From: a virus
Reading direction: 5' to 3' (one strand)
DNA length: 40,874 nt
Virus record (IMG/VR): IMGVR_UViG_3300050333_000073
This document shows, in pieces, positions 1-22,324 of the stretch. The notes beneath the pieces were generated by a model that was given only the letters and a program-made list of their open reading frames with translations, did not search any database and was not told the DNA's origin. The position numbers and the translations under genes are program-made. How positions within the stretch are numbered: the stretch's first letter is position 1; every line of letters starts with the position of its first letter.

Positions 1-127
1 AGGAGTGAGATTATGTCCTTGATGCCCAGGTCTAGAATTCCAATCTGCTTCATGAGGCATCACTTCAATACACTATAGCCTATCAGGTCTGTGTTGATGT
101 AAGATTCGGCTGATTCTGAACTGGTAC
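1..127. repeat. Terminal direct repeat, copy 1; identical to 40748..40874 (circular-assembly overlap or terminal redundancy)
   Basis: Base-by-base comparison shows 1..127 equals 40748..40874. No repeat partner exists for 40747 because the window starts at base 1. Confidence 0.95.
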
Positions 128-917
128 CACTTTCAGCGTCTCCACCAGCCAGGAATGAGTCAACTATCATTTTTGCCCGGGTTCGTAAGCTCACCCCATA
201 GTTTTTGGTAGTGGTTTGATTCCCATAGTCGAACTGGTATTGTTCGTTTTCTTTCTGTTTCATCCAGGCATAACTTGCAGCTGCCAGGTACACTGCTCCT
301 TCCAGTTCATCGTCATCTGGTACTGTCGTGTATTCTGGGCCCAGTTTTGATAAGACATAGGTGATTCCTTCTTTGATTTTTTGTTCTAAGTCTTCAACGG
401 TTGCAATGTATTTGGAGCTGGTTGCGTTGATTAGGGCTAGGTTGATTGTTGCTGTGATGGTTTTCAGGGCTTTGATTCCAATACTTTTGATGTTGGATAG
501 TTTCACTATGTCTCCCTTGGCGATGGGTAGTTCAACAATATTAACCAATCCTCCCTCTAATTCTGGGAGTTCCATAGTTACTATTGCGGTTGTGAGGTTG
601 GTGCTGTCAGATAAAATAAGTTCAAATGATTTCTCTGTTATATCACTGTCTGAATATATGTGGAGTAGTATATTTTCCCGGTCATCTAACCTGAAAGCTT
701 TCCTCTCCTCTGTTTCTTCAAAGTCACGGGTCGTGTAAATATAGGCGCCTTCCATCATGCCAGAAACTTCAAGAGAATCAGTGTGCACGGTTGCATGTCT
801 TTCTGTTAATTCAACTGCTACGGTGCCATTGGTATTCCAGTCTCTTTTAAAATCAGAAAGAATAATCCTATCCACAGAGTAGGCTTTTAGATGATCTAAA
901 ACTTTTAAATAATCCAT
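60..917 (-). CDS. Head-tail connector/adaptor-like structural protein (285 aa)
   Basis: Lies directly downstream of the capsid gene. SD GGAGGGG sits 6 nt before the ATG. The next gene in the operon is 40333..40800, across the window junction. Confidence 0.4.
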   Translation of the reverse strand: MDYLKVLDHLKAYSVDRIILSDFKRDWNTNGTVAVELTERHATVHTDSLEVSGMMEGAYIYTTRDFEETEERKAFRLDDRENILLHIYSDSDITEKSFELILSDSTNLTTAIVTMELPELEGGLVNIVELPIAKGDIVKLSNIKSIGIKALKTITATINLALINATSSKYIATVEDLEQKIKEGITYVLSKLGPEYTTVPDDDELEGAVYLAAASYAWMKQKENEQYQFDYGNQTTTKNYGVSLRTRAKMIVDSFLAGGDAESGTSSESAESYINTDLIGYSVLK

Positions 918-952: not shown

Positions 953-1894
953 TCATCCTGCTGTAACCAGGTCAGCAATGCGGATCATCCTTTCACCCTG
1001 AGCCCTTGGGTAAGCTCCAGCAGTACAAGCCACTTTAATAGTTGTCCTTGGCCTGTGCTCTTCATCAGCATTGTCAAACATTAACATTGACACGGGTGGG
1101 AGTAAGGATTCCATTCCTTCAATGGTAGGCATGGACTTGATTTTAGGGTTGTTGTATTTCATCATGATCACATCCAATGCAGGCATGTCCCTGTCAAACC
1201 CTATTGCCTCCCCATCATCAAAGTTCCTTCCACCCCAGAAGTTCTTAGCATTGGCTAAGTCCAGGGCATCTTTAATTTTAAAGCCGTTCTGAGGGAGGAC
1301 GTAATCACTAACGGATTGTGCTGCTCTGGCTTTTAATTCCACGTCTGCCTCAGTTCCATAGGCAACCATGTTTATGTTGTATGGTTTTGGTCTGATACTG
1401 GCCTGGAATCTCATCAAGTCACGGAGCACGGATTTAAATTCGGTGGCGTTTTCACCCCATTCCCCTATAATCTTATCATCAGTTACAACAGTGGCGTTGT
1501 CCTTGGCAGTGTTGTAAACGATTTCGTCCACATCATTAGCAAAGACATATCCCATTGCACTGATTTCATCCATGAGGTTGAAGTTAGGGTGTTCCATGTC
1601 ACTGTTAAGGATATTATATTCTATTTCATTATGCACAAGTTTGAATCCACTTGGAGTTATGACTTCTCCACGGATTTTACGTGCACTTGCGCCTTTAGCC
1701 AGTTTCTTTGACTTCCCAGTCTGGGTTAGGAACTTGTCAATTGGTGTGCTTTCAACAACTGTAACCTGTTCATTGTCCACTCTCATGAGTGGGAAGTTAC
1801 CGGCGAATCTGTAACCTTCAACCATTGAAAGTTTAAGCTCTGCTAGGTAGGTTCCGTTCTCAAAGTCAGCGTATATTTCTTTTAAACTTGCCAT
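953..1894 (-). CDS. Major capsid protein (putative HK97-fold), start moved to ATG 1894
   Basis: About 313 aa, last gene of the scaffold-decoration-capsid series. GGAGGT sits 7 nt upstream of ATG 1894. No delta domain, consistent with a separate scaffold. Confidence 0.65.
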   Translation of the reverse strand: MASLKEIYADFENGTYLAELKLSMVEGYRFAGNFPLMRVDNEQVTVVESTPIDKFLTQTGKSKKLAKGASARKIRGEVITPSGFKLVHNEIEYNILNSDMEHPNFNLMDEISAMGYVFANDVDEIVYNTAKDNATVVTDDKIIGEWGENATEFKSVLRDLMRFQASIRPKPYNINMVAYGTEADVELKARAAQSVSDYVLPQNGFKIKDALDLANAKNFWGGRNFDDGEAIGFDRDMPALDVIMMKYNNPKIKSMPTIEGMESLLPPVSMLMFDNADEEHRPRTTIKVACTAGAYPRAQGERMIRIADLVTAG

Positions 1895-1924
1895 TTTTAT
1901 TACCTCCAAAAATAAATTAAATTA

Positions 1925-2446
1925 TTATCCTCTAGTTACGCAGCCAATGAGCCCACGGCAGTCAACAGTAATGTAGCCTCCGGTGTTTGCTGGGATTGCA
2001 TCGTAACTGTAAACAACGTTACTGGTTTCGGCTGTTTTACCTAGTTTACCAGTTGCTGGGTTGATGTTGAGCTTATCCCCTACACCGATTTCTTCATTAG
2101 TATCTTCAAGGGGTAGTTGAATTTCATCATTAGGCAGTCTGGCCGCACCAACGTATCTGTTAGGATAATTACCCTGGGTGGCGGTTTCTTTAGGTAGTGT
2201 TCCTTGAACCTCTGGGTTGTAAGGGTTGATGTGGGTTGCAACCTCTCCATTTGCAACTTTCTTCATAGTTCTTTCACCAGTCCCCCGGACCAGGAAACTT
2301 TCCTCAGTCACTTGTGCTGCGAAAGTTAGCTGTTCGTTAGGTAGGCCATTGTTCGGGTCCACACCTTCACGGTAGGTTGCAGTTCCTTCTTCAACTTCGT
2401 AGGTTTTAACGTCCTTTTCTTCAAAAAATGTTCCAACTTTAGTCAT
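1925..2446 (-). CDS. Head decoration/cement-like protein
   Basis: Lies between scaffold and capsid genes. GGAGGT sits 7 nt before ATG 2446. The C-terminal GDKLNINPATGKLGKT...ITVD pattern resembles small beta-rich decoration proteins. Confidence 0.35.
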   Translation of the reverse strand: MTKVGTFFEEKDVKTYEVEEGTATYREGVDPNNGLPNEQLTFAAQVTEESFLVRGTGERTMKKVANGEVATHINPYNPEVQGTLPKETATQGNYPNRYVGAARLPNDEIQLPLEDTNEEIGVGDKLNINPATGKLGKTAETSNVVYSYDAIPANTGGYITVDCRGLIGCVTRG

Positions 2447-2467
2447 AAAATCTACCTCCAATTTAGT

Positions 2468-2932
2468 TTACCATCTTTTCTTTTTTTTCCTTATCTCTGC
2501 AAAATCTCCGGGTTTATCATCACCAGGGGTTTGTGTTCCATCATCATCATGGCCCGGAGCCCCACCAGTGGGTACTCCTTTTGGTTTTTGAGTGATGATT
2601 TTATGTTCCTTGAAAAATTTCAGCTTCTCCAGGGGCATGTCTTCGAGTTCTTTTTTCAACTCTTCATCTTCCCCGGCCAGTTCTTTTATCAGTTCTTCCT
2701 TCTCTTTGGCTTCGATTTTATCATATTTCTTGGCCTTTTCTTCTAAATCTTCGATTTTCTTTTCATTGTCATTTTTTTCTTTTTCTAACTCTTTTAACTC
2801 CTTTTCGAGTTTTTGTTTTTCTTCAACGGTTTTATTAGCACTGTTAAGCTTGGATTTAAGAATCCCAATCTCTTCCTGCTGTTCCTGCTGTTTTTCTAAA
2901 GCTTTCTCTAGAACTTCGCTTTTATCACCCAA
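2468..2932 (-). CDS. Scaffolding protein, short form (TTG start with its own SD)
   Basis: Extremely K/E-rich coiled-coil sequence upstream of the capsid gene. AAGGAGG sits 8 nt upstream of TTG 2932. Confidence 0.7.
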   Translation of the reverse strand: MGDKSEVLEKALEKQQEQQEEIGILKSKLNSANKTVEEKQKLEKELKELEKEKNDNEKKIEDLEEKAKKYDKIEAKEKEELIKELAGEDEELKKELEDMPLEKLKFFKEHKIITQKPKGVPTGGAPGHDDDGTQTPGDDKPGDFAEIRKKKKRW

Positions 2933-3313
2933 ATTATCATCCTCCTTAGGCTTTTCAATACTGTTATAAAGAATATGGCTCCGGGGTGTGGCTGTTAAAC
3001 CAACCTCTTTAAGATAGCCCGAAATTGGTAGGTAATATTTGTCATATTCAACCAGGTTAAGACCATCAAAGACTGGGCTGAGTCCTTTATCTTTCAGGTC
3101 TAGGTTCTTTGGTGGCTTGACTTGTAGGCTGCCGTCTTTGTAGACGAAATTATATACTCTACTTAAGACTTTTTTAGTATGTTCGTCAGTAACGTCTACG
3201 CTGCCAGTGGTGGCAGCTATTTCTTTTAAAAACTCTTCTGTGAATTTAACGGGTTTTTCCAGACCATGGTCTTTATAGTCACCTAGGACTGGTTCGAATA
3301 TAGGTATTAAAAT
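2468..3313 (-). CDS. Long form of the scaffold gene with a globular N-terminal extension; start codon unresolved (ATT 3313 proposed)
   Basis: The frame stays open for 134 codons upstream of TTG 2932, back to TAA 3335..3337, with no in-frame ATG, GTG or TTG. GGAGG (3323..3327) sits 9 nt before in-frame ATT 3313..3311. Confidence 0.4.
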   Translation of the reverse strand: MLIPIFEPVLGDYKDHGLEKPVKFTEEFLKEIAATTGSVDVTDEHTKKVLSRVYNFVYKDGSLQVKPPKNLDLKDKGLSPVFDGLNLVEYDKYYLPISGYLKEVGLTATPRSHILYNSIEKPKEDDNLGDKSEVLEKALEKQQEQQEEIGILKSKLNSANKTVEEKQKLEKELKELEKEKNDNEKKIEDLEEKAKKYDKIEAKEKEELIKELAGEDEELKKELEDMPLEKLKFFKEHKIITQKPKGVPTGGAPGHDDDGTQTPGDDKPGDFAEIRKKKKRW

Positions 3314-3347: not shown

Positions 3348-3355
3348 TATTCTGA

Positions 3356-3428
3356 AGCCTGAGGAGGCACTTGCAGCCCCACCTTCCGGGTTACAAATCC
3401 GGCACTCATCTACTTGAGTTACACAGGC
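3356..3428 (-). tRNA. tRNA-like gene, anticodon UGU (Thr), non-canonical elbow, no encoded CCA
   Basis: Hand-folded 73-nt cloverleaf. Acceptor GCCUGUG/CUCAGGC (one U-U). D stem ACUC/GAGU. Anticodon loop UUUGUAA. Variable loop of 5 nt. T stem GGGGC/GCCUC. Discriminator U. The D loop lacks GG and the T loop reads UGCAAGU. Confidence 0.55.
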
Positions 3429-3438
3429 AGAAAAAGAG

Positions 3439-3993
3439 TTAATTAAAATTTAAATGTTCATATACGATTGGGGGTTTAATATTCACATCAGCATTTATGG
3501 AAGCTTTTATAGCAATTTCAACACTAACTACGGTCATATCTTTAATGATTGTCTTTAATGCGTACAATGCCCCTCTTGAATCATATCTTCCAACACCAAT
3601 GGCATCATAATCATCTTTTGATTCAGTTACTCCAAAATGACTTCCCATCCTAAAAAGTCTGCCTTTATATCCAATCAGTAAATCGGTTGCTGGATTCATT
3701 GAGGCATTTTCTATCATTGATTCATCAATAAGTCTGGTCTTAATTGCAGGTATCAAATCCTTAATTATGTATTCATATGGATCTTCCCGTTTATCTTCAG
3801 GATAATCAAAATCATGATTTAAAATTTGTCCTATCCTTGCACTACCTGCAACGCCAATTAACATATTATTAGCAGTTTTAAAGATTTTCTGTTGGTTTTT
3901 CATAGTTGTGTATGCATCAAATCCATCTAAATTTGCACTATCAGCCCCCATGATTATACCGTCATCAGTGATTATTCCTACTACACAAGTCAT
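3439..3993 (-). CDS. HslV/proteasome beta-subunit-like N-terminal-threonine (Ntn) peptidase
   Basis: M-TCVVGIITDDGIIMGADS places Thr directly after Met and an Asp at mature position 17. KIFKT..NMLIGVAGSA and DAIGVGRYDSRGALYAL resemble HslV KVRRL..VIAGFAGG and IAIGSGG motifs. An SD-like AGGTGG sits before ATG 3993. Confidence 0.8.
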   Translation of the reverse strand: MTCVVGIITDDGIIMGADSANLDGFDAYTTMKNQQKIFKTANNMLIGVAGSARIGQILNHDFDYPEDKREDPYEYIIKDLIPAIKTRLIDESMIENASMNPATDLLIGYKGRLFRMGSHFGVTESKDDYDAIGVGRYDSRGALYALKTIIKDMTVVSVEIAIKASINADVNIKPPIVYEHLNFN

Positions 3994-4004
3994 TATTTCC
4001 ACCT

Positions 4005-4793
4005 CTAAATTAGACTAATATCAGCGTACTCCTGAGACAGTGCCAAATATCCTTGATATTCCTTAGTAGAATCATCACTCACTGGAACCAACCGGCAATG
4101 TCCATTCGGATGGTCATAAGGCCATTGGTCAATTGTCTGGGCAGGTAACCTAGCCCGGTCATAACATTTCTGGCAGGTGTTAATCCCACGTACAACCCAA
4201 TAGTACAACATTGCAGATCCATACCTCATCTCCTGAGCGGACCTGGTGACTTTTTGCTTAGCAAACTGGGCATTGAATTTAACATAATTCTTAGTACGCT
4301 TGGCCGCACGCTGAAAATTAGATTTAAGATTAAAGTTTTTAGCCTCAGCCATTTTTTCCTTAGTTGCTAAAGCCTTGGTTCTAACATCGTCCTTTAATTG
4401 GTTAATCGTGCTTTTAACACTGGATTCCATTGTATCAAAGGTGCCTTTAAGGTTATAATCCAATTTTACTTGTGGGATAACCTTCTCATGAATATTGTAA
4501 TCTTTGAGGACGGTGACTTTATGGTCTTCTATTAGCTTGGTTAATTCGGTTTTACTATTTTTGGCCAGTTTTTCACCGGCCTTGGTAACTGCTTCAGGGA
4601 ACTTTAGGAGGATGTAATCAACACTTTTATGTTCAAAGTCATTGTAAAGGGTGGCCAGGACGGCAAATAATGCGACATACATTAATTGTTCATCCATATC
4701 CATGGAGTCATCTACATCAGGAGTTCCTGGTTGGAATGAGTTATCCTCCAGGCCCAAGAGTTCGCCCTCAGTTGGTATTTCCGTTACCATCAT
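4005..4793 (-). CDS. Minor head protein, Mu F / SPP1 gp7-like
   Basis: Lies directly downstream of the portal gene. The C-terminal CQKCYD...WPYDHPNGHCRLVPV pattern is typical of this family. Confidence 0.65.
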   Translation of the reverse strand: MMVTEIPTEGELLGLEDNSFQPGTPDVDDSMDMDEQLMYVALFAVLATLYNDFEHKSVDYILLKFPEAVTKAGEKLAKNSKTELTKLIEDHKVTVLKDYNIHEKVIPQVKLDYNLKGTFDTMESSVKSTINQLKDDVRTKALATKEKMAEAKNFNLKSNFQRAAKRTKNYVKFNAQFAKQKVTRSAQEMRYGSAMLYYWVVRGINTCQKCYDRARLPAQTIDQWPYDHPNGHCRLVPVSDDSTKEYQGYLALSQEYADISLI

Positions 4794-6030
4794 CAGCCCC
4801 TCCTTCCTCTTTTTCCTCTTCTGGTGTTTTTTTACCTTTATTTTCGTCAGTTTCTAGGTATCCTGATTTCTTATCTTTGTCCTTGGGATGGAAGTTAATC
4901 CAGACATTTCCTTTTTTACCTGCTAGTTCTAGTTCAGGTGTGAATAATTCATTTTCAATATATTTTTTCAACCATTCCCTGTTGTATTCAATGAATACAA
5001 CTCTTCCACTGGTTTCACTATCCATTAATACTTCCGCTGTGGCCCGGTTACTTCCTTCTGTATCAAATAGTGCATGTGGTGTTGAGAGTCCATCGAAAAT
5101 TTCATTCTTAAAATCCTGTTTATATTTTGGAATATCTGGCAGCTGACTTGTACCAATCATTTCAGCTTCAAGCCCGAAAGGGAGAACCACTACTCCTTTT
5201 TTATGGTAATCAGTAGTGGCCTCCACAACCGCCTCACGGGACTGTTTAGTTAAACGTTTACCTGGGGCATCCTTGTTCCCCATAGTCACAATTAAAATAT
5301 TGGAATTTTTGAAAACAGTTTTCGGCATCAAATCAGATAGGACCCTACGATAATATACCGGGTCCAGGATGTCCATCACTATGGATCTGCCATTACCTTT
5401 TAACTCCATATACTTGGCATTGATGATCTCTCCTGGCTGGAATGGTACTGTCCATTCTTCTAATTTTTCTTCCAGTTCCTCGAATTTTTTAGCCAGCCAT
5501 CCTTTATTTGTTTCTTTGTTTCTTTGTGTTAGTTGTTTGAATCCGGTTACTTTACCGTATTCATCGTAAATCTTTTTGATTCGATAGTTTTCAGCATCAA
5601 AGGCCAGGATTCGGAGGTGGATTCTATTTTCAATAATAATCTTATTCGTGAATACCTCACCATCAACCTGACCCGCCCAGAGGAAGTCCCTCATGACCTG
5701 GTTAATATCCCAGTCTGTGCTTTTGCAACGTTCAATGATATGGTTCACTGCGTCCTGGTTATCTCCTTCTATTACAAAGTTAGATATTGTTTTAGTGATG
5801 TTATCATTGATGATACCCTTCACAATAGGGTCGTTTGCTGCAAAACGGCAGTTCTTTATAGTTCTTTTGACCTTGAAAGGTACAGTATCGATAAGATCTA
5901 TAGCATCTGTATCAGTGGTGGTAGTATCATCAGTATCTATCCCGGTTTCTTCTATTGCGTTGGGTTCCGCATTCCGTAAAAGGAAATTTTTGTAGTTGAT
6001 TCTGTCTAATAATCCCATAAGTTCCACCAC
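4768..6030 (-). CDS. Portal protein (start may be ATG 6018)
   Basis: About 420 aa ORF immediately after the large terminase gene, with an acidic/Gly-rich C-terminus. Confidence 0.7.
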   Translation of the reverse strand: MVELMGLLDRINYKNFLLRNAEPNAIEETGIDTDDTTTTDTDAIDLIDTVPFKVKRTIKNCRFAANDPIVKGIINDNITKTISNFVIEGDNQDAVNHIIERCKSTDWDINQVMRDFLWAGQVDGEVFTNKIIIENRIHLRILAFDAENYRIKKIYDEYGKVTGFKQLTQRNKETNKGWLAKKFEELEEKLEEWTVPFQPGEIINAKYMELKGNGRSIVMDILDPVYYRRVLSDLMPKTVFKNSNILIVTMGNKDAPGKRLTKQSREAVVEATTDYHKKGVVVLPFGLEAEMIGTSQLPDIPKYKQDFKNEIFDGLSTPHALFDTEGSNRATAEVLMDSETSGRVVFIEYNREWLKKYIENELFTPELELAGKKGNVWINFHPKDKDKKSGYLETDENKGKKTPEEEKEEGGADDGNGNTN

Positions 6031-8281: not shown

Positions 8282-8605
8282 TCACTTGAAAATAACTATA
8301 ATTGATATAAAGGCTCCTATGAAGACTCCCACCATCATGAAGATGTATTTTGTATTGGTGTTGTCCCCTTCCTTGATTGCTGTCCAGATGAGGTTTAGTT
8401 TTTTGTCGATGTTTTCTATTGTATCGTCTTGTCTTTTGTTTAGTTTTTCCTGGTCTTTTTCTATCCTGTTTAGTCTTTCTTCTTGTTTACAAGGGTGTGG
8501 TTGTGTTTGGCTGCTATTTATGGGGGGTATGGGTTGGTAGTATGGGTTATCATCTTCCTTTTCTTCCTGGAAGGTTTCGGTAATTTTATCTGCTTGGGTT
8601 GGCAT
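8282..8605 (-). CDS. Tail-anchored membrane protein (107 aa)
   Basis: GAGGTGA SD. Hydrophilic coiled N-terminal part and a single C-terminal TM segment, IFMMVGVFIGAFISIIVIF. Confidence 0.5.
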   Translation of the reverse strand: MPTQADKITETFQEEKEDDNPYYQPIPPINSSQTQPHPCKQEERLNRIEKDQEKLNKRQDDTIENIDKKLNLIWTAIKEGDNTNTKYIFMMVGVFIGAFISIIVIFK

Positions 8606-8655
8606 ATGGTTATCACCTCACCCTTGGGTGTATAAAGTGGTGGGGTCATCTGTTC

Positions 8656-8856
8656 TTAGGCTGACTCTTCTTTGGTTTCGGTGGTTGTGCGGGGGTAATA
8701 TGCGTTGAAAACAACTATTAACAGTGGTATTAATGCCAGGAACTTAGTGTAGTAAGGTCCCATTAGTGGCTCTACCAGTGAGGGATCTGCTAGTATTGCT
8801 GCGAATATTATCATGGCTCCGCTTATTACGTATGTGCTTATTTTTCCATTGTCCAT
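8656..8856 (-). CDS. Small two-TM membrane protein (66 aa), holin-like by size and topology only
   Basis: AGGAGG SD. Two hydrophobic segments. Confidence 0.5.
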   Translation of the reverse strand: MDNGKISTYVISGAMIIFAAILADPSLVEPLMGPYYTKFLALIPLLIVVFNAYYPRTTTETKEESA

Positions 8857-8894
8857 GTTTTTTATTCCTCCTTTTAATGAAATAGGTTATAATA

Positions 8895-8972
8895 TTATCC
8901 TGATAGTAATTTTAATAAGATGAATAAGATTAAAATGGCTAAAGCTAATGTTACAAGTGTATCATCAGACAT
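8895..8972 (-). CDS. 25-aa hydrophobic peptide (MSDDTLVTLALAILILFILLKLLSG)
   Basis: Hand-translated. AGGTG lies upstream of the ATG. Below the length cutoff of the ORF track. Confidence 0.3.
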   Translation of the reverse strand: MSDDTLVTLALAILILFILLKLLSG

Positions 8973-8984
8973 TAGGGGCACCTA

Positions 8985-9110
8985 TCATTTTTTTTGTAGG
9001 TAATTTGATTCAAAATGAACCTCTTTATGTTTGGGACATTCCCATTTTTTGGTTTGTGGATTGAAAAAAAGGGAGAGGCCACAGTATCCACATCTACGGC
9101 CTTTCTTCAT
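8985..9110 (-). CDS. Zinc-ribbon mini-protein, copy A (41 aa, MKKGRRCGYCGLSLFFNPQTKKWECPKHKEVHFESNYLQKK)
   Basis: Hand-translated. Shows a CxxC...CPxH pattern. Shares a 59-bp exact repeat with 10200..10322. Confidence 0.5.
   Translation of the reverse strand: MKKGRRCGYCGLSLFFNPQTKKWECPKHKEVHFESNYLQKK
9034..9092. repeat. 59-bp exact direct repeat, copy A
   Basis: ggacattcccattttttggtttgtggattgaaaaaaagggagaggccacagtatccaca is identical at 10243..10301. Confidence 0.95.
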
Positions 9111-9117
9111 AGTATCA

Positions 9118-9222
9118 TCACTCACAGTATAGGTATGCTCCCAGGTAGGTCATGGGTTCCCATCTGTATTTTTTGTAGTTGAATTGTTCCATGAATCCGT
9201 ATGCGTTTGTTGTTGCAGCCAT
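9118..9222 (-). CDS. 34-aa hypothetical peptide
   Basis: Hand-translated (MAATTNAYGFMEQFNYKKYRWEPMTYLGAYLYCE). GGAGGT sits 7 nt before the ATG. Confidence 0.3.
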   Translation of the reverse strand: MAATTNAYGFMEQFNYKKYRWEPMTYLGAYLYCE

Positions 9223-9259
9223 ATCTTTTTACCTCCATCCTTATTTTAAAAAAATGGGT

Positions 9260-9676
9260 TTAGAAAAGAATCTCATTGGTTTGGAAGCATGCATGAGCTT
9301 TCTGCCATGGTGTGGGCTCTGGTTGAACTGTTTCCATTTTGGAAATAGTTGGTTCAGGTTCTGGATAATACTTGGTTAAACGGGCTCTGGCACCATGGCC
9401 GGCTTTATCATAACCATTAGTACCATCATAATCTGCATTACATACCGCACAGGTCCATTCCCCTTCATAAGTGCATTTAGGATTCCATAATAAACAATCC
9501 CTGTGTCCACATAGGGGGCAGTGATCAATCCATGTGTAGGTGCCACTTTCTCCGTAGTAGTATCCTGATTGCACTGCGTAATGTGTGACAGTATTTACTG
9601 CAAAAGAACAAGGCAAAACAAATAACGTAAATAATAAAAGTAGTATTGGTACTCGTTTAATTAAATCACTCTCCAT
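9260..9676 (-). CDS. Secreted cysteine-rich protein (alternative start at 9712)
   Basis: Signal-peptide-like N-terminus MESDLIKRVPILLLLFTLFVLPCSFA. Mature part has 8 Cys, including HCPLCGH and CAVC. Confidence 0.5.
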   Translation of the reverse strand: MESDLIKRVPILLLLFTLFVLPCSFAVNTVTHYAVQSGYYYGESGTYTWIDHCPLCGHRDCLLWNPKCTYEGEWTCAVCNADYDGTNGYDKAGHGARARLTKYYPEPEPTISKMETVQPEPTPWQKAHACFQTNEILF

Positions 9677-9766
9677 TTGTGTATTTATGGATTTATGGTT
9701 TTTGCATTGCAATTAACCAATATGCCACTATGCCACGGAGGTTTAAGGTCTAATAAAGACCTCTGA

Positions 9767-10231
9767 CTACATAATATCACCATAAATTGCTTCTAAAACC
9801 AAATCATGAACTAATTCAGCACTTAAAGGATCTTCAAATGATCCTAATGATTTTGCATGATTGTTATACTTAATGATAGAATACCAGCATTTCCTTTCGC
9901 AATGGACTCTTTTTTCTAAACGAACTCCTGTAAAATTAAACAGCCCTTTATTCCGCTGGATAACACTCATTTTTAAATTATGCTCTCGAGAACATTTCAT
10001 TCCAGTTCTAGATTTACTCATTTTTTTCCTAGTCTCTAAAGAAACATTCCTACCTTTTTGAGCTTCACTCATTTTTTTACGTGATTTTAGTGAGTGGGTT
10101 TTTCCCATGCGAGCCATACTCATTTTTTTACGAGTTTCAATGGAGTGTTTCTTACCATAAAAAGGATGATTTTCTCCTTTCATTATTTCGCTTAATTTTT
10201 TACGAGTTTCCACAGAATTCAAAATTAACAT
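9767..10231 (-). CDS. NUMOD3-repeat DNA-binding protein; homing-endonuclease remnant with no nuclease domain
   Basis: Repeated HPFYGKKHSxETRKKMS-type motifs. The C-terminus (GLFNFTGVRLEKR...GSFEDPLSAELVHDL) is paralogous to the GIY-YIG protein at 21403..22317. No GIY-YIG or HNH motifs are present. Confidence 0.6.
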   Translation of the reverse strand: MLILNSVETRKKLSEIMKGENHPFYGKKHSIETRKKMSMARMGKTHSLKSRKKMSEAQKGRNVSLETRKKMSKSRTGMKCSREHNLKMSVIQRNKGLFNFTGVRLEKRVHCERKCWYSIIKYNNHAKSLGSFEDPLSAELVHDLVLEAIYGDIM

Positions 10232-10322
10232 CCTTATGGATTGGACATTCCCATTTTTTGGTTTGTGGATTGAAAAAAAGGGAGAGGCCACAGTATCCAC
10301 ACCGGCGACCCTTCTTTTTCAT
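10200..10322 (-). CDS. Zinc-ribbon mini-protein, copy B (40 aa), possibly a chimeric duplicate
   Basis: Hand-translated MKKKGRRCGYCGLSLFFNPQTKKWECPIHKDVNFEFCGNS. Its tail overlaps the start of the NUMOD3 gene in another frame. Confidence 0.4.
   Translation of the reverse strand: MKKKGRRCGYCGLSLFFNPQTKKWECPIHKDVNFEFCGNS
10243..10301. repeat. 59-bp exact direct repeat, copy B
   Basis: Identical to 9034..9092. Confidence 0.95.
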
Positions 10323-10327
10323 TTTTA

Positions 10328-11104
10328 TCACTTCGCAACTACAAAATCCATTAAAGTCTGTTGTTTACGTTGTTCAACCTGTAAGGTTTCAGCTGTTGCC
10401 ATCCGTTCCCTTATTATATTGCAGTAATCATGCTCCTTTTCAATAAGGATACAGTTACGGTTTAGGTTTTGACAAGCCACCCCGGTTGTACCACTGCCGG
10501 CACAATTATCAAGTACAAGGTCATTCTCGTTGGTGTAGGTTTTTATTAAGTATTCAAAGAGTGCCACTGGCTTTTGAGTTGGGTGTAAACCAGTTTCATT
10601 ATTAAAATTCAAAATGGATGTAGGATAACGACTTCCATCATTCTCAGTAACCCATCCTGCCACTTCTTTACCTTGTTTTTCTCCCATGAAGTATCCGCCA
10701 AAAGCTCTTTTGGCGGAGTAAGGAGTTCCTTCTGTCTTTTGTGGGTTGTATTGTGGGAGTTTATCATAAAAGATTAAAATGTTCTCATGCCTTTTTAATG
10801 GCATTTTGTTGGCTAATAAGAATCCTCCACCATTGGATTTCTCCCATATCCATTCATAACGGAACATGTCATAATTACTACTAATCAAACGAGTTGTAAA
10901 CGGTTGACTGGCTGTTAGTACAATAGCCCCATGGGGTTTAATCAATCGTTTATATTCAAGCCATAAATCCTCTAATGGTAAGATTGTATCCCATTTACAG
11001 GCTGTTGTACCATACGGAAGATCACAGAGTATCATATCCACTGATTCATCCTCAATCTCTGGGAAGACGTTAAAGCAGTCGTCCTCGTAGAGTTTCCATG
11101 ACAT
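10328..11104 (-). CDS. DNA methyltransferase (N6-adenine/N4-cytosine, beta-class motif order), orphan
   Basis: A DPPY-type motif (ILCDLPYGT) lies near the N-terminus and an AdoMet motif (DNCAGSGTTGVA) near the C-terminus. No adjacent restriction gene. Confidence 0.85.
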   Translation of the reverse strand: MSWKLYEDDCFNVFPEIEDESVDMILCDLPYGTTACKWDTILPLEDLWLEYKRLIKPHGAIVLTASQPFTTRLISSNYDMFRYEWIWEKSNGGGFLLANKMPLKRHENILIFYDKLPQYNPQKTEGTPYSAKRAFGGYFMGEKQGKEVAGWVTENDGSRYPTSILNFNNETGLHPTQKPVALFEYLIKTYTNENDLVLDNCAGSGTTGVACQNLNRNCILIEKEHDYCNIIRERMATAETLQVEQRKQQTLMDFVVAK

Positions 11105-11140
11105 TTTCGTAAACCTTTTTGACTACTGTATTTGACAACT

Positions 11141-11179
11141 AAAAAAAAGATGGTAAGGAACCAGTTTGCAGACTGGTTC
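11141..11179 (-). terminator. Hairpin plus T8 terminator after the HNH gene
   Basis: Stem gaaccagt/actggttc (11158..11165 / 11172..11179), followed on the minus strand by a T8 run. Confidence 0.6.
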
Positions 11180-11227
11180 GGAACCTGAATGATAGAATAT
11201 ACAATTTAAAAAAATTAGTTTAATATA

Positions 11228-11707
11228 TTAAATTAATGAGGGTTCTTCTAATTTACTACATTCATTCTTATAGGCTTCATAAGCTTCCTCTTCCGTTTCA
11301 TAAAGCCCTAAAAATTTATTTTTGCCATTGATAGAAATACGTGCAACCCATTTGTTATGTGATTTATAAAAACTAACTCCAGGGTATTTAGAACTATATT
11401 TTGTTATTCTGTTTTGATGATTTTGGCGTGGAGTGACATACCTTAGATTAGAACGCCTATTATCTAATGTATCATGATTAATGTGGTCTATATGTAAATT
11501 TTTGGAAGAGTTCATTATCTCCCTGTGCATATAAATCATTTTACGTTTTTTATCTGAAGTTTCATGTGTTCCTGTAGTGCGAACAGCGTAGTAAGTTTTA
11601 GTTCCTTTATTCCAATGAATTGTCCATTTCCATTGGTTTAAATAATCATATACATTGTCATCAACTAAAGTGAATTTGTTTTTATTTAATTTGATTTTCT
11701 TAACCAT
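11228..11707 (-). CDS. HNH homing endonuclease with C-terminal AP2-like DNA-binding domain
   Basis: HIDHINHDTLDNRRSNLRYVTPRQN is an HNH_3-type motif. YPGVSFYKSHNKWVARISINGKNKFLGLYETEEEAYEAY is an AP2-type motif. Confidence 0.85.
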   Translation of the reverse strand: MVKKIKLNKNKFTLVDDNVYDYLNQWKWTIHWNKGTKTYYAVRTTGTHETSDKKRKMIYMHREIMNSSKNLHIDHINHDTLDNRRSNLRYVTPRQNHQNRITKYSSKYPGVSFYKSHNKWVARISINGKNKFLGLYETEEEAYEAYKNECSKLEEPSLI

Positions 11708-11710
11708 TCT

Positions 11711-11785
11711 TTAACTCCTATAGATTCACGCCCTTAACTCCTATTCAAATCGCCTAATGATAGGCGTGGTGAGGAGTGGAGTTAA
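11711..11785 (-). promoter_or_regulatory. Repeat-rich structured leader upstream of the HNH gene
   Basis: ttaactcctat occurs at 11711 and 11734, with an inverted ggagttaa at 11778. cacgcc/ggcgtg and cgccta/taggcg pairings overlap each other. The copy nearest the ATG contains the SD AGGAG. Confidence 0.4.
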
Positions 11786-11826
11786 GAATACTCCTCTCAC
11801 AAGATAATATATGATTTTAAAAGTAC

Positions 11827-11970
11827 TTAAATCTTTCTAATTGTTTTAAGTTGCTGGAAGGAAATAATACGTGTATAATCCTTGGTTATCCATTTGTGGA
11901 CTGCTGCTCCAACTCCTTGGATGGTCAGGAGTATAATAAAACAGAATATAGTAAATTTCTCAATTGTCAT
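11827..11970 (-). CDS. 47-aa membrane peptide
   Basis: Hand-translated MTIEKFTIFCFIILLTIQGVGAAVHKWITKDYTRIISFQQLKTIRKI. GGAG sits 4 nt before the ATG. Confidence 0.35.
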   Translation of the reverse strand: MTIEKFTIFCFIILLTIQGVGAAVHKWITKDYTRIISFQQLKTIRKI

Positions 11971-12174
11971 CAACTCCGTTTATGGTTTTTGTTTGGGGTT
12001 TTTCAGTTCACCGCATTGCTGGTTTTTACTGATAGCCACGGCCACTTTGGAGTTTAGGGTCATTTCTGACCAGATGGGTACATAATTATCACCTTTATTA
12101 AATTATATAAAAAGAGTAGTGTAGAATCCTTTTTGGCGTGGAAGAGGAGCAGATTAAAAACACCAACAAAGTTT

Positions 12175-12183
12175 GGGGGGGGG
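12175..12183. repeat. G9 homopolymer (followed by ttggg) in a gene-poor 600-bp stretch
   Basis: Read directly from the sequence. Confidence 0.9.
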
Positions 12184-12303
12184 TTGGGAACGTATTATTT
12201 ATTTTAAAACGTTGAATTTGTTTTATGATATATCGACTAAAATATTTTCCTCTATCCACTTTACCAGGGATCCTAGATATCTAAAATAGGTGAATGTGAA
12301 TTT

Positions 12304-13152
12304 TTATTTGTTTAAAATTTTTGTCCTGATTTTATGCTTCTCATAATACTGCCAGTATTCATGATTTAAAGGGTTATTCTCTGGTAGGTTCTGAGGGTCC
12401 TGTTCAAGTAGTGCCCCGGTTTCTCTCTGATATTTCTGGTATGCATTGTCATGGGCTTCTTTTACAACTTCTAAGGGTCGTGGTTGTTTTTTCTTCTGGT
12501 ACTTTTTGGTGAAATCAAGTGGTGGGAAGTCCTGGACCGTGGGTGCAATCTTTCGTATTGGGGTTAAATCGTATAGGGTGAAACCTGGGTGTAGTACTGG
12601 AGCTCCTATGACAAGGCCGCATTTAGGGTTTGAACAGACCAGTAATGCCCTTTCTACTAGGTTCTGTCTGTTCCCACACTCGGGACATTTTAAATTATTT
12701 TCTTTAAGGTATGCGGTGCTTAGGAAATAAAGGTCATCATAGGTTATGCCCTGATAAGACAATGAAGGTATAGGGGAATGTTCCCCTTCATTAGAAGTTG
12801 TAACGAAAGTCTCTTTTTTCATATCCTTGATAGATAAAGACAGATTAAAAAACTTTATAGGAACTCCCAAATAAGAAGGGTCGGGTTTTTCGTATTTCTT
12901 TTTAAATTTAGATTGTGTCCCAAGTTCTTTAGATATTTTAGGAAGAGTTCCTTCATTTTTGTATTTTTTTCTATATTCTCTTACCCGGTTTTTTCCTTTT
13001 TCTCTTATTGATTCGTGCCTGCACCATGCTGAGCAGTATAGTTTATTTGGTTGTTGTGTGAAGAATTGGTGATTGCACCCTTTCTTTAGTCCTCTGCAAT
13101 TCTTCAAATAAATTTTGGTATACTTTCCGGTTATTGTTTTGATTTTACCCAC
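12304..13152 (-). CDS. Zinc-ribbon protein with a TFB/TFIIB-like ribbon (GTG start)
   Basis: LKCPECGNRQNLVERALLVCSNPKCGLVIG resembles the TFB N-terminal Zn ribbon. A second Cys cluster (CNHQ...YCSAWCRH) lies at the N-terminus. The linker is basic. Confidence 0.5.
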   Translation of the reverse strand: MGKIKTITGKYTKIYLKNCRGLKKGCNHQFFTQQPNKLYCSAWCRHESIREKGKNRVREYRKKYKNEGTLPKISKELGTQSKFKKKYEKPDPSYLGVPIKFFNLSLSIKDMKKETFVTTSNEGEHSPIPSLSYQGITYDDLYFLSTAYLKENNLKCPECGNRQNLVERALLVCSNPKCGLVIGAPVLHPGFTLYDLTPIRKIAPTVQDFPPLDFTKKYQKKKQPRPLEVVKEAHDNAYQKYQRETGALLEQDPQNLPENNPLNHEYWQYYEKHKIRTKILNK

Positions 13153-13296
13153 GGCTCCCCTTTCTGTTGTATTAGTATAACAATACCTTATTATTTAAAG
13201 TTAATTATAAATACCAGATAGGATCATAATTATAACTCCACGGCTGGTTTCTTACAGATGAAAAAAATAAAAAAAGGAATATCCACTTTTCATTAT

Positions 13297-13437
13297 TTAA
13301 TCCCTCCTTGTTTTGTGTTTTGTATAAATAGCCTGCATTTCATCTTTAAACTCTTTTAATATCTTTTCCCCATACGCTTTCCATCCCATTTCTTTTTTTT
13401 GTTTGCGTTCGATGTAGTCTTTAAGAGATTCCCTCAT
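13297..13437 (-). CDS. 46-aa basic protein, translationally coupled (TAATG) to the upstream gene
   Basis: ATG 13437..13435 overlaps the TAA 13439..13437 of the preceding ORF. The longer 69-aa reading in the ORF track overlaps that gene by 70 nt. Confidence 0.45.
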   Translation of the reverse strand: MRESLKDYIERKQKKEMGWKAYGEKILKEFKDEMQAIYTKHKTRRD

Positions 13438-13862
13438 TAGATTGCCTCCCACGTGGTCCCATTCCATTGCTTGTTGAAGCAGGTTTCCATCACAAAACAA
13501 AGCCATAGGATATTCCAGTCCCCGGTTTCAAATATTTCAAAGTATGGTAAACCATGCTCAAACCTTTCATGCTGGTATCTGAAAGCATCCCATCGTTTGA
13601 ATTGGACATAACAGCAATCAAAGGATAGTTCTTTCTGTTCTTTGTAGATTTTTTGGAGGTCTTCCTGCCGAGGCAACCAAAATCCCATCTGTTTATAATG
13701 ATACCCAAACCTATTTTTTAACTCTTTATCAGCCATTGTAACTGGTTCTATCAACTTTTTTTTAACGTAGTAGATCATGTCTCCTTTTTTAGGTTCCCAT
13801 CTTTCCTGTATCTCAGTGGCTTCCTTACACATTTTTATAAAAGTTTCATCCATCCGTATCAC
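13437..13862 (-). CDS. Hypothetical protein (141 aa)
   Basis: Intact ORF in the operon series. No motif recognised. Confidence 0.55.
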   Translation of the reverse strand: MIRMDETFIKMCKEATEIQERWEPKKGDMIYYVKKKLIEPVTMADKELKNRFGYHYKQMGFWLPRQEDLQKIYKEQKELSFDCCYVQFKRWDAFRYQHERFEHGLPYFEIFETGDWNILWLCFVMETCFNKQWNGTTWEAI

Positions 13863-14515
13863 CTCTCAAAGTAATATTCCTTTATTGCAGTTGCTTTGCG
13901 TTCCCCTATCCCATCAACACTCATCAAATCCTCTTTGCTTATCGTACATAATTCTGGAATATTATCAACCCCCAATTCACCTATAATCCTTTTACTGTAC
14001 TCCAAACCAATCCCGGGGACTTGGTACAACGCCCCCACTAACACGGCTTCCTTTTCATTCGTTGCCCGTTTAACGTTCATAGGATGCGTATCAATGCCGT
14101 CACTTTTACTGAATATTCGTTTGCTGACCTCGAAGAACTCTCTATTGCTTTGGACTTTAAGGAATTTCATATTATATCGTGCCATGAGGCTGATGATTGC
14201 ACCCTTCCACATGGCTTCACTGAATCGTAGTTTGTCTTGGCGTGAAAGGTCATCATAGCCCCCAACAAGGATGATATAACTGGAGGCGTATGTATCTCGC
14301 ATTCTCCGGGCTTGTTGCCATAACCGACCATCACCATTACAATCACCCATCACGGACCCCACAAAATCAGGGGCTGTCTTTCTCTCTATACCTACGTTGT
14401 ATTCAGTGCAGGTAAGGTCAGCACTATCCAACCGCTCCACACTACCCTCTGGGTAAAACTCATGGAATAAATCCTTAATATGCTGAGGTTCGATAGAATC
14501 AAGGACTACGGACAT
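13859..14515 (-). CDS. ERCC4/XPF-Mus81-type structure-specific nuclease with C-terminal (HhH)2
   Basis: ADL...VGIERKTAPDFVGS matches the GDxnERKx3D signature. The C-terminal PGIGLEYSKRII...VDGIGERKATAI forms two helix-hairpin-helix motifs. AGGGGTGA SD precedes ATG 14515. Confidence 0.75.
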   Translation of the reverse strand: MSVVLDSIEPQHIKDLFHEFYPEGSVERLDSADLTCTEYNVGIERKTAPDFVGSVMGDCNGDGRLWQQARRMRDTYASSYIILVGGYDDLSRQDKLRFSEAMWKGAIISLMARYNMKFLKVQSNREFFEVSKRIFSKSDGIDTHPMNVKRATNEKEAVLVGALYQVPGIGLEYSKRIIGELGVDNIPELCTISKEDLMSVDGIGERKATAIKEYYFER

Positions 14516-14519
14516 ACTT

Positions 14520-14783
14520 TCACCCCTCTGGTGGATGGTCATCAACATACCTTGTTAACCCTTTACAAAATTCTACCCCATCAAACTGATTATATGTAAT
14601 CTTAACCGTACCAAATGGAGCGCTGTATTCTGGGATTGTGATATGGAACTTCTTATCATAATTGATTAAGGTGGTTAATGATTCCATGTGCCAGTTTATT
14701 AGTTCCTGTTTACGGTATTCGTTAATTTCGGATTCTAACATTCCTTTCATTTCGATTTTGCTTTTCAGTTTATCATTTTTCAT
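14520..14783 (-). CDS. Hypothetical protein (87 aa)
   Basis: AGGAGG SD. Intact ORF. Confidence 0.5.
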   Translation of the reverse strand: MKNDKLKSKIEMKGMLESEINEYRKQELINWHMESLTTLINYDKKFHITIPEYSAPFGTVKITYNQFDGVEFCKGLTRYVDDHPPEG

Positions 14784-14785
14784 GT

Positions 14786-15220
14786 TTATGATTCCTCCTT
14801 TTCCAATAACTCCGGACTCTCAAAACGATTACCAATCACTTCTACATCTGCCCTTGTTATTTTAGGGTTCGTAATGGTATCAAACCACTTTTTACCACTT
14901 TCAGTTTTACCTACAAAAGCAAAGGCCAAAGCTACGTACTCCACGACACCTTTAACCTCTTCTGTGTAGAATCGTGATGTCCCAAGTACTATGTCGGCCT
15001 CATAGATGGGTGTGCCCCGCTTATCATGCAAACCCGTAAACTCTACCAAAAAAGCCACTCCCACACTATCCGGTGGCATGTACTTGTCCGCAACAATAAC
15101 CCAACCATCCAAACCAAAAAGGTAAGCCTTTGCGGGGTGGTCATCGCCTTCTAGCCATTCTAGGCTTTGCACGTCCCACATTTTATTATTATACCATGCC
15201 CTGTATTTTATTTCCCTCAT
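14786..15220 (-). CDS. YopX-like protein
   Basis: The N-terminal MREIKYRAWYNNKMWDV pattern is characteristic of the YopX family. Confidence 0.55.
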   Translation of the reverse strand: MREIKYRAWYNNKMWDVQSLEWLEGDDHPAKAYLFGLDGWVIVADKYMPPDSVGVAFLVEFTGLHDKRGTPIYEADIVLGTSRFYTEEVKGVVEYVALAFAFVGKTESGKKWFDTITNPKITRADVEVIGNRFESPELLEKEES

Positions 15221-15235
15221 AAAACAAACCCCCCT

Positions 15236-16498
15236 TCACATTGATACCATTGCCTGGTAAACTTTCCCACTCATTTTCCTAAGCTCAGGATACATTTCAG
15301 CAAAACAACGCATCTTATCAGCCGGAGCCGCCTCTTCTCCAATCTCCTCATTCACCTTTTCAACAATCCCCCTTAACTCATTATCAATTTTAACCTTAGC
15401 AAAATGCTTACCAAGAACTGATAAAATCTTTTGGTTTGATTTAACATCTTTAACCATCTGTTCGGGGTATTCTTCTAATAATTCATCTTCAATAAACCTT
15501 AAAACAGTGTTACGGTCTGTTCTATAACTGTCTTCAAAGTCTGGGAAATACTCTTCACCTTTCATGACTGCCTTTTTAATATCATTGTGAGGAATACCAC
15601 AAGCGGCCTTAATATGCCCTTCCCTAACTGACAGGGCTTTACATTTAGCTAAGTGAGTTTCATCTATTCCATAATGCCATACAGCCCCTTCAGTGATTAT
15701 TCCTCCCTGGTGCTTGTCTTGGAAGTTCATATTTACCTTTTCAAAGAAGGTTTCAAGTTCATGGTATAGATTAAAGATTCCTTCTGGCTGCAATTTATTT
15801 CCTTTGGCTTCTAAGAGTGTTTCTTCTGGTAAAAACTCATTAAATCGGTTAATGTATTCTCTGGTTGCTTCGGCTTCCCAGTCCCCATCACTACTATAAA
15901 CCTCAAAACAATCCATAACTAAAGGTATTTTATAGCGGCAGGATAGGGTTAATAATGAATAATAAGGGATAGCCATTCCTTGATTTAAAGCACAAAGTAA
16001 AGTTAAATTCAATTCTGGAATATCTTGGTATTGGTACTGAGTTTCATGCTTGTTTAAAGTTCCATATAACTCATAAGCAAAACTTAACCCCTCTTGTTCA
16101 ACAATACTATAATATTGTGGTTTAATTACCTGTTCAATCTTATCCATCCAGTTCTGACCACAATCGGGCATTAAACGAGTCTTAAACAATACCTCCATAC
16201 AAGCCCCATCCTGGAGCAATGGGAACATCACAATATTAGTACCATCCTCTTTTTGCAGAACATGAGGCAATTCAGGCACATCACGGTCATCAAGATACTT
16301 AATTTTAGGCATACCTCTTACAAACTGCCATGAATCTTGACTATTTACAGTGTCAATAATCAAAGAACCCATATTACTACCTCGACTTTTACATATCCAG
16401 CCTTCCACTAGATTTTTATCCGGTGTTTCCATTTTAAAATGCTGTATATTTTTCCCACTTACACCAAACATTTCCGATGCTTTTTCTTTTTCAATCAT
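15236..16498 (-). CDS. ATP-dependent RNA-ligase-like nucleotidyltransferase (start moved to ATG 16498)
   Basis: Motif I KEDGTN (LQKEDGTNIVMF). Later ELYG, ITEGAVWH (EG motif) and AKCKA (KxK) in the expected order. GGAGGGG sits 7 nt before ATG 16498. Confidence 0.6.
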   Translation of the reverse strand: MIEKEKASEMFGVSGKNIQHFKMETPDKNLVEGWICKSRGSNMGSLIIDTVNSQDSWQFVRGMPKIKYLDDRDVPELPHVLQKEDGTNIVMFPLLQDGACMEVLFKTRLMPDCGQNWMDKIEQVIKPQYYSIVEQEGLSFAYELYGTLNKHETQYQYQDIPELNLTLLCALNQGMAIPYYSLLTLSCRYKIPLVMDCFEVYSSDGDWEAEATREYINRFNEFLPEETLLEAKGNKLQPEGIFNLYHELETFFEKVNMNFQDKHQGGIITEGAVWHYGIDETHLAKCKALSVREGHIKAACGIPHNDIKKAVMKGEEYFPDFEDSYRTDRNTVLRFIEDELLEEYPEQMVKDVKSNQKILSVLGKHFAKVKIDNELRGIVEKVNEEIGEEAAPADKMRCFAEMYPELRKMSGKVYQAMVSM

Positions 16499-16520
16499 TC
16501 CTAATCCCCTCCAAAGTTTT

Positions 16521-16754
16521 TCAATACCCAATTTCAAAAACATAAATAAAACCATAACTCTCGTAAACAAGGAAATCAGCCTCAGTCACAAAGCCCAAAG
16601 CCCTACGAACATCATCCACACCCACACCCTGCTTCCTAAGTTTATCCACATCCACATTCACCCCATAATCCTTGGCAAATTCGTATAATACCAGTTCAGG
16701 GTATTCTATTCCTGGTGAAAGCACCAGTTTACCACGCTTTTCATACACAGTCAT
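16521..16754 (-). CDS. Hypothetical protein (about 77 aa)
   Basis: GAGGTGA sits 7 nt before ATG 16754. Confidence 0.45.
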   Translation of the reverse strand: MTVYEKRGKLVLSPGIEYPELVLYEFAKDYGVNVDVDKLRKQGVGVDDVRRALGFVTEADFLVYESYGFIYVFEIGY

Positions 16755-16761
16755 ACACACA

Positions 16762-17151
16762 TCACCTCACCCTCAAATCACATATCAAACCATGAACACA
16801 ATCCCCACAACCCTCACCAAGATCACGTTCACAAAACACCACATCAACCCGATAATCTTGCAAGTGCTCCCAATCAAAACATTCACGTTCAACGTATCGC
16901 TGAATAACATTAAGTTCTAAATTAATCCAGTGATCTAACTTGAACCAGGGCCTATCAACTATGGGTCCATCATGAAATTCTGGGAACTTTTCTTTCCATC
17001 CAGTTTTTTGGGCTGCAACTTTGAGTTTGTGGTATCGTATCCACCACATTCTTTCAAGTGGGTGTAGGGTTAGGAATGGTTTTTGCTCGAATAATTTTTC
17101 ATATTTTTGCTTTTTAACCTTCCTTATCAAATTTTCATAATCAATCTCCAT
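16762..17151 (-). CDS. Hypothetical protein (129 aa) with a Cys cluster at the C-terminus
   Basis: Intact ORF with CERDLGEGCGDCVHGLIC. Confidence 0.5.
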   Translation of the reverse strand: MEIDYENLIRKVKKQKYEKLFEQKPFLTLHPLERMWWIRYHKLKVAAQKTGWKEKFPEFHDGPIVDRPWFKLDHWINLELNVIQRYVERECFDWEHLQDYRVDVVFCERDLGEGCGDCVHGLICDLRVR

Positions 17152-17170
17152 TTTAACCCCCCATTATATT

Positions 17171-17366: not shown

Positions 17367-17372
17367 GTTACC

Positions 17373-19109: not shown

Positions 19110-19127
19110 CTCCTATTTTTTTAGTTT

Positions 19128-19162
19128 AAAAAAAAAGTGGGAACCAGGATTTATTCTGGTTC
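19128..19162 (-). terminator. Hairpin plus T9 terminator
   Basis: Stem gaaccag/ctggttc (19141..19147 / 19156..19162), followed on the minus strand by T9 (19128..19136). Same stem sequence family as 11158..11179. Confidence 0.6.
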
Positions 19163-20041: not shown

Positions 20042-20042
20042 C

Positions 20043-20543: not shown

Positions 20544-20544
20544 T

Positions 20545-21249: not shown

Positions 21250-21261
21250 TCTAATTCCCCC

Positions 21262-22317: not shown

Positions 22318-22324
22318 ATTATCT

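Follow-up and report, generated by a model that had tools for sequence, protein, structure and literature searches.

What does a proteasome-like gene do among the head genes of a tailed virus? The whole stretch of DNA analysed here (the window) is a tailed-virus contig of 40,874 bp with nearly all of its long open reading frames on the minus strand, and the gene in question, at 3439-3993, stands inside its head module. An earlier note on this DNA had read it as an HslV/proteasome-beta-like peptidase that fills the slot of the prohead protease and carries out capsid maturation or scaffold removal, with manipulation of host proteolysis as a fallback. A threonine proteasome-type enzyme serving as a prohead protease would be a striking new solution to capsid maturation, and the evidence contradicts it. 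The peptidase gene and its surroundings are laid out as follows; the gene between the peptidase and the 178-aa head protein is described further below.

4768-6030, minus strand: portal protein gene (phrog_9232)
4005-4793, minus strand: MuF-like head morphogenesis gene, directly upstream of the peptidase gene (likeness to vir249)
3999-4005, minus strand: Shine-Dalgarno-like GAGGTGG, read from the sequence, 5 nt upstream of the peptidase ATG
3439-3993, minus strand: gene for an HslV/BPH-like Ntn threonine peptidase, 184 aa, without a propeptide (family matches, conservation, model)
1925-2461, minus strand: 178-aa head protein, between the protease-scaffold and capsid genes (vir249 homolog annotated as a head scaffolding protein)
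953-1909, minus strand: major capsid protein candidate (position in the module and 85-99% identity in relatives)

The peptidase frame opens with an ATG (a GTG at 4002 is also in frame), and its translation begins MTCVVGIITDDGIIMGADS. In the numbering of the mature protein it carries Thr1, Asp17, Lys35 (within QQKIFK), Gly46 (within LIGVAG) and an AIGVG motif, and the catalytic residues and Gly-rich motifs to which the earlier note had drawn attention are therefore all in the ORF. The family assignment held as well. Pfam PF00227 (Proteasome) scores 27.8 bits, above its cut-off of 22.4; phrog_1040, "peptidase HslV family," matches at 8e-18, and exactly this protein is named "ATP-dependent protease HslVU peptidase subunit" in IMG. 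When the profile of the peptidase family was compared with the PDB, BPH (5ovu, 5ovs) was found at about 1e-12 and the HslV of Thermotoga at 2e-8, far beyond chance, and the equivalents of Asp17, Lys33 and Gly47 align with active-site residues of BPH in the profile alignment. A search of 5.8 billion proteins recovered 57 homologs. In the resulting 58-sequence alignment (ORF numbering), M1, T2, C3, K36 and G47 are conserved in at least 90% of sequences and A17, D18, S19 and G133 are invariant, so that Thr1, the Lys and the Gly pass the 90% mark and Asp17 is present throughout; at least 90% of the 58 begin with MTC, and homolog P0052 begins with MSC.

Structure prediction gave the same picture. 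The AlphaFold model of the peptidase (pLDDT 94, pTM 0.90) has Thiobacillus BPH as its best Foldseek match (TM 0.83), followed by HslV, archaeal and eukaryotic beta subunits, and Anbu. It returned 1,211 matches in the PDB at an E value of 0.001 or below, and the best 50 of the 1,211 are all members of the proteasome family, so that the model and its fold matches agree on the alpha-beta-beta-alpha architecture of Ntn hydrolases. The ORF at 3439-3993 encodes an Ntn threonine peptidase of MEROPS T1 with the proteasome-beta/HslV/BPH fold. Its N-terminal 60 residues also weakly match TIGR03634, the archaeal beta subunit, at 1.8e-5, far below the cut-off. One supporting residue departs from the proteasome pattern: the equivalent of Ser129, which hydrogen-bonds Thr1 and is not the nucleophile, is Val in the window and in the related contig L003, and elsewhere in the family the position is occupied by S, C, A, T, N or V. 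Val at this position could lower the activity of the enzyme. Between the window gene and its 95%-identical copy in L003 there are 23 synonymous and 10 non-synonymous codon changes, and the gene is therefore under purifying selection. Its Shine-Dalgarno-like sequence overlaps the TAG stop codon of the MuF-like gene, and the peptidase gene is therefore probably co-transcribed with the late head genes. Promoter-like matches were at chance level only, and terminator-like matches numbered four against 2.2 expected from shuffles, all of them on the non-coding strand.

According to Fuchs et al. 2021 (PMC8665760), tailed phages carry and disseminate the proteasome homologs PPH, AAH and CPH, which form clusters around BPH and HslV. 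The window peptidase belongs to this compact proteasome-like group, consisting of HslV and BPH with the phage-associated AAH, CPH and PPH relatives. Like PPH, AAH and CPH and the members of phrog_1040, it is proteasome-like, encoded by a stand-alone gene, and carried and disseminated by tailed viruses; homologs occur in 151 phage records, where they are annotated as an HslV-family peptidase, a proteasome subunit or an Ntn hydrolase. The best match in both profile and fold is BPH, first found in Betaproteobacteria (PDB 5ovs, 5ovt, 5ovu). BPH begins with Met-Thr without a propeptide, loses the Met and binds epoxomicin; it forms 14-mers, has no ATPase partner and no HslU-interface residues, and is inert on standard substrates (PMC5777263). 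The window peptidase shares with BPH a length of about 185 aa, a Met-Thr-Cys start without a propeptide and the Thr1/Asp17/Lys/Gly set, and no ATPase partner gene lies near it among the matches listed. In contrast to these similarities, the two proteins are only 18 to 20% identical, BPH Ser139 (proteasome Ser129) is replaced by Val, and the window gene is found in a virus of a probable archaeal host whereas BPH is encoded on a bacterial chromosome. HslV (ClpQ) of the HslVU protease has the same fold and catalytic residues, but its profile similarity to the window peptidase is weaker than that of BPH, and neither HslU nor any other AAA+ domain was among the matches listed for the other window ORFs (25 of 28 Pfam and 25 of 50 PHROG families).

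Group I proteins are said to occur only in bacteria and bacteriophages (PMC8665760), whereas the nearest homologs of the window peptidase are found in Methanobacteriaceae proviruses and in Methanobacterium virus PhiF1. A literature search returned no experimental work on viral proteasome homologs and no described function. The legend to Fig. 1c of PMC11375127 carries the labels "NTN-hydrolase" and "Prot: serine protease" for maps of MSTV1-like Methanobrevibacter viruses; an HMM search of MSTV1 (PP537965) found no homolog of either the window peptidase or the window protease. What remains of the original observation is a further proteasome homolog carried by a virus, here a probable Methanobacteriales virus, and its slight novelty lies in the occurrence in archaeal viruses, the phage-borne kind being already known.

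The slot that the peptidase was thought to fill is not empty. Between the peptidase gene and the coiled-coil scaffold lie a tRNA-Thr and a protease domain of 120 residues, which becomes visible once the listed "scaffold" ORF, starting at TTG 2932, is followed upstream: its frame is open for a further 381 nt to an ATT at 3313 and adds the domain to the scaffold. The frame as such is open from 3334, with the upstream stop at 3337. The elements of the extended gene are these:

2468-3313, minus strand: prohead protease-scaffold gene, 281 aa (open frame, 88 homologs, codon bias, GenBank annotation)
2948-3313, minus strand: protease domain, residues 1-122, with invariant His45 (codon 3181-3179), Ser79 (codon 3079-3077) and Pro110
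2468-2932, minus strand: putative nested in-frame scaffold product, a 154-aa coiled coil (internal TTG 2932-2930, GGAGG plus 8 nt)

The extension behaves as coding sequence, since third-position differences dominate in comparison with six relatives (in one example, 15/6/42 for codon positions 1, 2 and 3). With an exhaustive HMMER search, 88 homologs of the protease-scaffold protein were recovered, mostly of 280 to 290 aa and with their Met1 aligned to the window ATT at 3313, whereas a word-indexed homolog search had found a single relative of the protease domain. Across 60 to 65 sequences with a mean identity of 24 to 36%, the only invariant columns are His45, Ser79 and Pro110. The model of the protease domain (pLDDT 91.7) was matched in BFVD to prohead serine protease, HK97 proheadase, COG3740 head maturation protease and DUF2213, and also to protease-capsid fusions; these named matches have a probability of 1.0 (0.99 in one case) and TMq values of 0.49 to 0.75, and the best match overall is an unnamed protein at an E value of 4e-5. 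In the PDB, herpesvirus assemblins came first in the fold search, at a level that is not significant (E of at least 0.23). GenBank homologs in the Methanobacteriales viruses vir249 (39% identity) and vir323 (36%) are annotated as "prohead protease," and in the window and all relatives the gene lies between the portal/MuF and capsid genes and is linked to the scaffold.

Sequence models are silent on the domain. It has no match in Pfam (including S78), PHROGs, NCBIfam or PDB sequences; the first three, run on the extended ORF and 60 family members, gave coiled-coil noise only, and the profile of the domain found nothing meaningful among PDB sequences. An hhalign comparison with a shallow profile of HK97 gp4 pairs His45 with HK97 His65 at an E value of 0.59, which is not significant. 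With fold matches, invariant His and Ser, position and third-party annotation pointing one way, the N-terminal domain is called a divergent prohead serine protease with an assemblin/HK97-type predicted fold, outside Pfam S78, and it is on these four lines that the assignment rests. The absence of the protease-scaffold family from Pfam, PHROGs and NCBIfam makes its description a useful practical by-product.

The protease half of this gene is hidden from automated annotation by its apparent start codon. There is no in-frame ATG, GTG or TTG upstream of 2932 in the protease-scaffold frame, and a GGAGG at 3327-3323 lies 9 nt upstream of the ATT at 3313-3311. This GGAGG/ATT arrangement is conserved in 12 related contigs, four of which have ATC in place of ATT, and more distant relatives of the gene have an ordinary in-frame ATG. 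The full-length protein therefore probably starts at ATT 3313-3311, as far as the reading frames and their conservation indicate. Because of such an AUU/AUC start, ORF finders overlook the protease domain and annotation yields only the scaffold half: the output of gene callers is limited to the C-terminal scaffold part or, for L003, to a truncated product of 240 aa, which invites the misreading of the neighboring peptidase as the occupant of the prohead slot. A −1 frameshift from an out-of-frame ATG at 3321 was also considered and judged unlikely. This ATG, although conserved, is only 1 nt from the GGAGG, the 9-nt spacing of ATT 3313, similar to the 8 nt of the internal TTG, favors ATT instead, and L015 to L018 are without a common slippery site.

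The internal TTG may also be used. At its position (alignment column 200), 60 of 65 homologs have a residue compatible with a start codon (M in 42, V in 10, L in 8), and the GGAGG upstream of it is kept in close relatives at the same 8-nt spacing. This suggests that the gene yields nested products, a protease-scaffold and a free scaffold, with the weak start providing little of the full-length protein and the internal start providing much of the free scaffold. Nested protease-scaffold and scaffold products are made from lambda C/Nu3 and from herpesvirus UL26/UL26.5. Like these, ORF 2468-3313 joins an N-terminal serine protease in frame to a C-terminal scaffold, and its conserved internal start would yield the scaffold in free form. 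Unlike them, it has no significant match to S78, S77, S49 or any catalogued family, and its protease domain is short (about 120 aa) and has an apparent AUU/AUC start.

The peptidase gene, for its part, appears to be a late arrival at this site. It forms, together with the tRNA, an insertion delimited by the breakpoints of homology to related contigs:

3349-4004, minus strand: accessory insertion of about 655 bp, comprising peptidase and tRNA (homology breakpoints versus relatives)
3356-3428, minus strand: tRNA-Thr with anticodon UGU, inserted along with the peptidase gene (Rfam, 43.3 bits)

Homology to relatives ends at about 4006 and restarts at about 3348-3327, and no direct repeats flanking the insertion were found. 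Eleven IMG/VR contigs are close relatives, with portal proteins 82 to 97% and capsid proteins 85 to 99% identical to those of the window. In 11 of 11, the protease-scaffold gene comes next after the MuF-like gene, with neither peptidase nor tRNA between them, and an AT-rich spacer of 45 to 75 nt stands in place of the insertion. The same junction without the peptidase is found in two distant IMG/VR relatives, which brings the IMG/VR contigs lacking it at this site to 13, and in vir249. The closest relative, whose capsid protein is 99.4% identical, has no copy of the peptidase in 28.8 of 36.7 kb. Among the contigs compared, only L003 has the peptidase and tRNA arrangement of the window. ARAGORN called no tRNA anywhere in the window but did call a tRNA-Thr(tgt) on the homologous L003 copy. 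Against the Rfam model, four positions of the window tRNA are marked as non-standard pairs, and its T-loop, UGCAAGU, is unusual; the L003 tRNA has the canonical UUCGAGU loop and compensating stem changes.

Elsewhere the gene occurs in other company. In four relatives a copy with 59% identity stands in the tail module, flanked by the tail-chaperone and tape-measure genes, within a variable island that includes opposite-strand ORFs. A provirus on a Methanobacteriaceae contig of 2.5 Mb has a 59% homolog at a similar place in its tail module. Such islands are at 7900-10800 in L021 and at 9000-13200 in L001 and L025. In the Methanobacteriaceae provirus a histone-fold gene (L001 9612-9821) adjoins the peptidase homolog within the island. 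More distant homologs, 34 to 35% identical, are surrounded by DNA polymerase, nuclease and ribonucleotide-reductase genes in the case of Methanobacterium virus PhiF1 and by phosphoesterase and ligase genes on a 100-kb phage contig. No neighboring gene is conserved next to the peptidase across these contexts. With the gene absent from close relatives and found at tail and replication sites elsewhere, the peptidase is thus, by comparison of these genomes, a mobile and sporadic accessory gene, and it appears to be dispensable for assembling essentially the same capsid.

The remainder of the head module fits a conventional plan. The MuF-like product shares 28% identity with the vir249 protein annotated as "head morphogenesis protein," and its gene has no HMM match in Pfam or PHROGs; it is 59 to 71% identical among close relatives, compared with 82 to 97% for the flanking portal and 85 to 99% for the capsid. 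The vir249 head module is syntenic with that of the window, and the capsid candidate at 953-1909 occupies the slot of the vir249 "major head protein, HK97-like fold," to which it has no sequence match. Gene order continues across the ends of the window (1-917 and 38994-40874). In the relative L010, a homolog of 60-917 is followed directly by a homolog of 40333-40800, and the window therefore looks like a complete, circularly permuted genome.

The host is probably a member of the Methanobacteriales. This is inferred from four observations: the nearest homologs of the peptidase are in proviruses of Methanobacteriaceae MAGs, the relatives that the protease gene has in GenBank all belong to Methanobacteriales viruses, the head module is syntenic with that of vir249, and a lysin candidate resembles a protein of Methanobacterium virus PhiF1. 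This candidate, at 25734-26669 on the minus strand, combines two PG_binding_1 repeats with a transglutaminase-like core and shows weak similarity (E value of 4e-6) to the pseudomurein endoisopeptidase of PhiF1. A bacterial host had been considered first on account of the PG_binding_1 domains and was set aside in favor of Methanobacteriales on the evidence of the relatives. A scan of GTDB genomes with the capsid protein gave no match, nor did a scan with a replication protein.

The best explanation, with a probability of about 0.8, is that the peptidase gene joined this virus lineage together with the tRNA-Thr, between the MuF-like and protease-scaffold genes, and encodes a catalytically competent, stand-alone, propeptide-free accessory BPH-like threonine peptidase acting on cytoplasmic targets, while the separate His45/Ser79 domain matures the capsid. 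Transcription of the peptidase gene would accompany that of the late head operon; the protein would lose its initiator Met, which exposes Thr1, and would assemble into a homo-oligomeric double ring. It would then cleave host or viral proteins or peptides in the cytoplasm of the infected methanogen cell, in the service of host takeover, counter-defence or protein turnover and not of capsid maturation. That task would fall to the serine protease domain of ORF 2468-3313, carried into the procapsid by its own C-terminal scaffold segment, which would also be made separately from the internal TTG. Manipulation of host-cell proteolysis, the fallback of the earlier note, is thereby a more likely direction than the capsid-maturation role that it had put first. 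The note had stated that a prohead protease found elsewhere, with the peptidase dispensable for head maturation, would count against that role, and both are what the comparisons indicate.

That the Thr1 peptidase is nevertheless the capsid-maturation or scaffold-removal protease is very improbable. Its place in the head block, 11 nt after the MuF-like gene and probably co-expressed with it, and the lack of any Pfam or PHROG prohead protease family among the matches listed for the window would suit such a role, but the scaffold directly downstream carries a fused His/Ser domain whose fold is that of prohead proteases, homologs of that domain are annotated as "prohead protease," and the 13 related head modules, one of them with the 99.4%-identical capsid, do without a peptidase at this site. 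Its occurrence in tail or replication modules elsewhere adds to a contradiction by comparative genomics. It is quite unlikely that the enzyme works beside the prohead protease as an auxiliary morphogenetic protease, trimming or degrading a virion-associated protein (for example, the MuF-like or a tail protein) or being packaged itself. Both of its sites in this virus group are within late structural operons, namely, the head module in the window and L003 and the tail module in the four relatives and the Methanobacteriaceae provirus. Close relatives, however, do without it in assembling the same structural proteins, distant homologs belong to replication modules, and no structural neighbor is conserved; moreover, gene junctions in late operons are common insertion sites for accessory genes.

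Two further possibilities concern the way in which the peptidase would act. Members of the Methanobacteriales have a 20S proteasome with AAA+ partners, and the viral protein might dock to a host AAA+ unfoldase or replace beta subunits in 20S alpha rings, redirecting host proteolysis. The weak, below-cut-off TIGR03634 match over the N-terminal 60 residues and the lack of an AAA+ domain among the matches listed for the other window ORFs would be consistent with this. It is unlikely, given that BPH, the best structural relative, has neither a known ATPase partner nor HslU-interface residues and that the likeness to true beta subunits is much weaker than that to BPH or HslV. It is likewise unlikely that the protein is a pseudo-enzyme, weakened in its catalysis or not proteolytic at all, whose function would be, for example, that of a ligase, a binding protein or a decoy, as might be read from the Val at the Ser129 equivalent, from the inactivity of BPH on standard substrates (PMC5777263) and from connectase, another proteasome homolog, which is a ligase (mentioned in PMC8665760); against it, Thr1, Asp17, the Lys and the oxyanion Gly are all kept and strongly conserved, and the gene is under purifying selection. 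There is, finally, a small chance that the peptidase is a late-expressed effector with a specific target, degrading a host defence or regulatory protein or combining with the alpha rings of the host 20S proteasome into hybrid particles. In that case, the repeated arrival of the gene in structural operons would be explained by its having to be expressed while virions are assembled, a viral proteasome homolog would have a functional role for the first time, and "group I" homologs would be extended to the archaeal virosphere.

Outside the head module, the region at about 8600-25000 contains several domains of the homing-endonuclease type (NUMOD3 in two ORFs, GIY-YIG, HNH and AP2; the domains are not assigned to single ORFs) together with DNA methyltransferases. 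The same region includes GcrA-like and sigma-70 region 4-like DNA-binding domains, which are unexpected in an archaeal virus.
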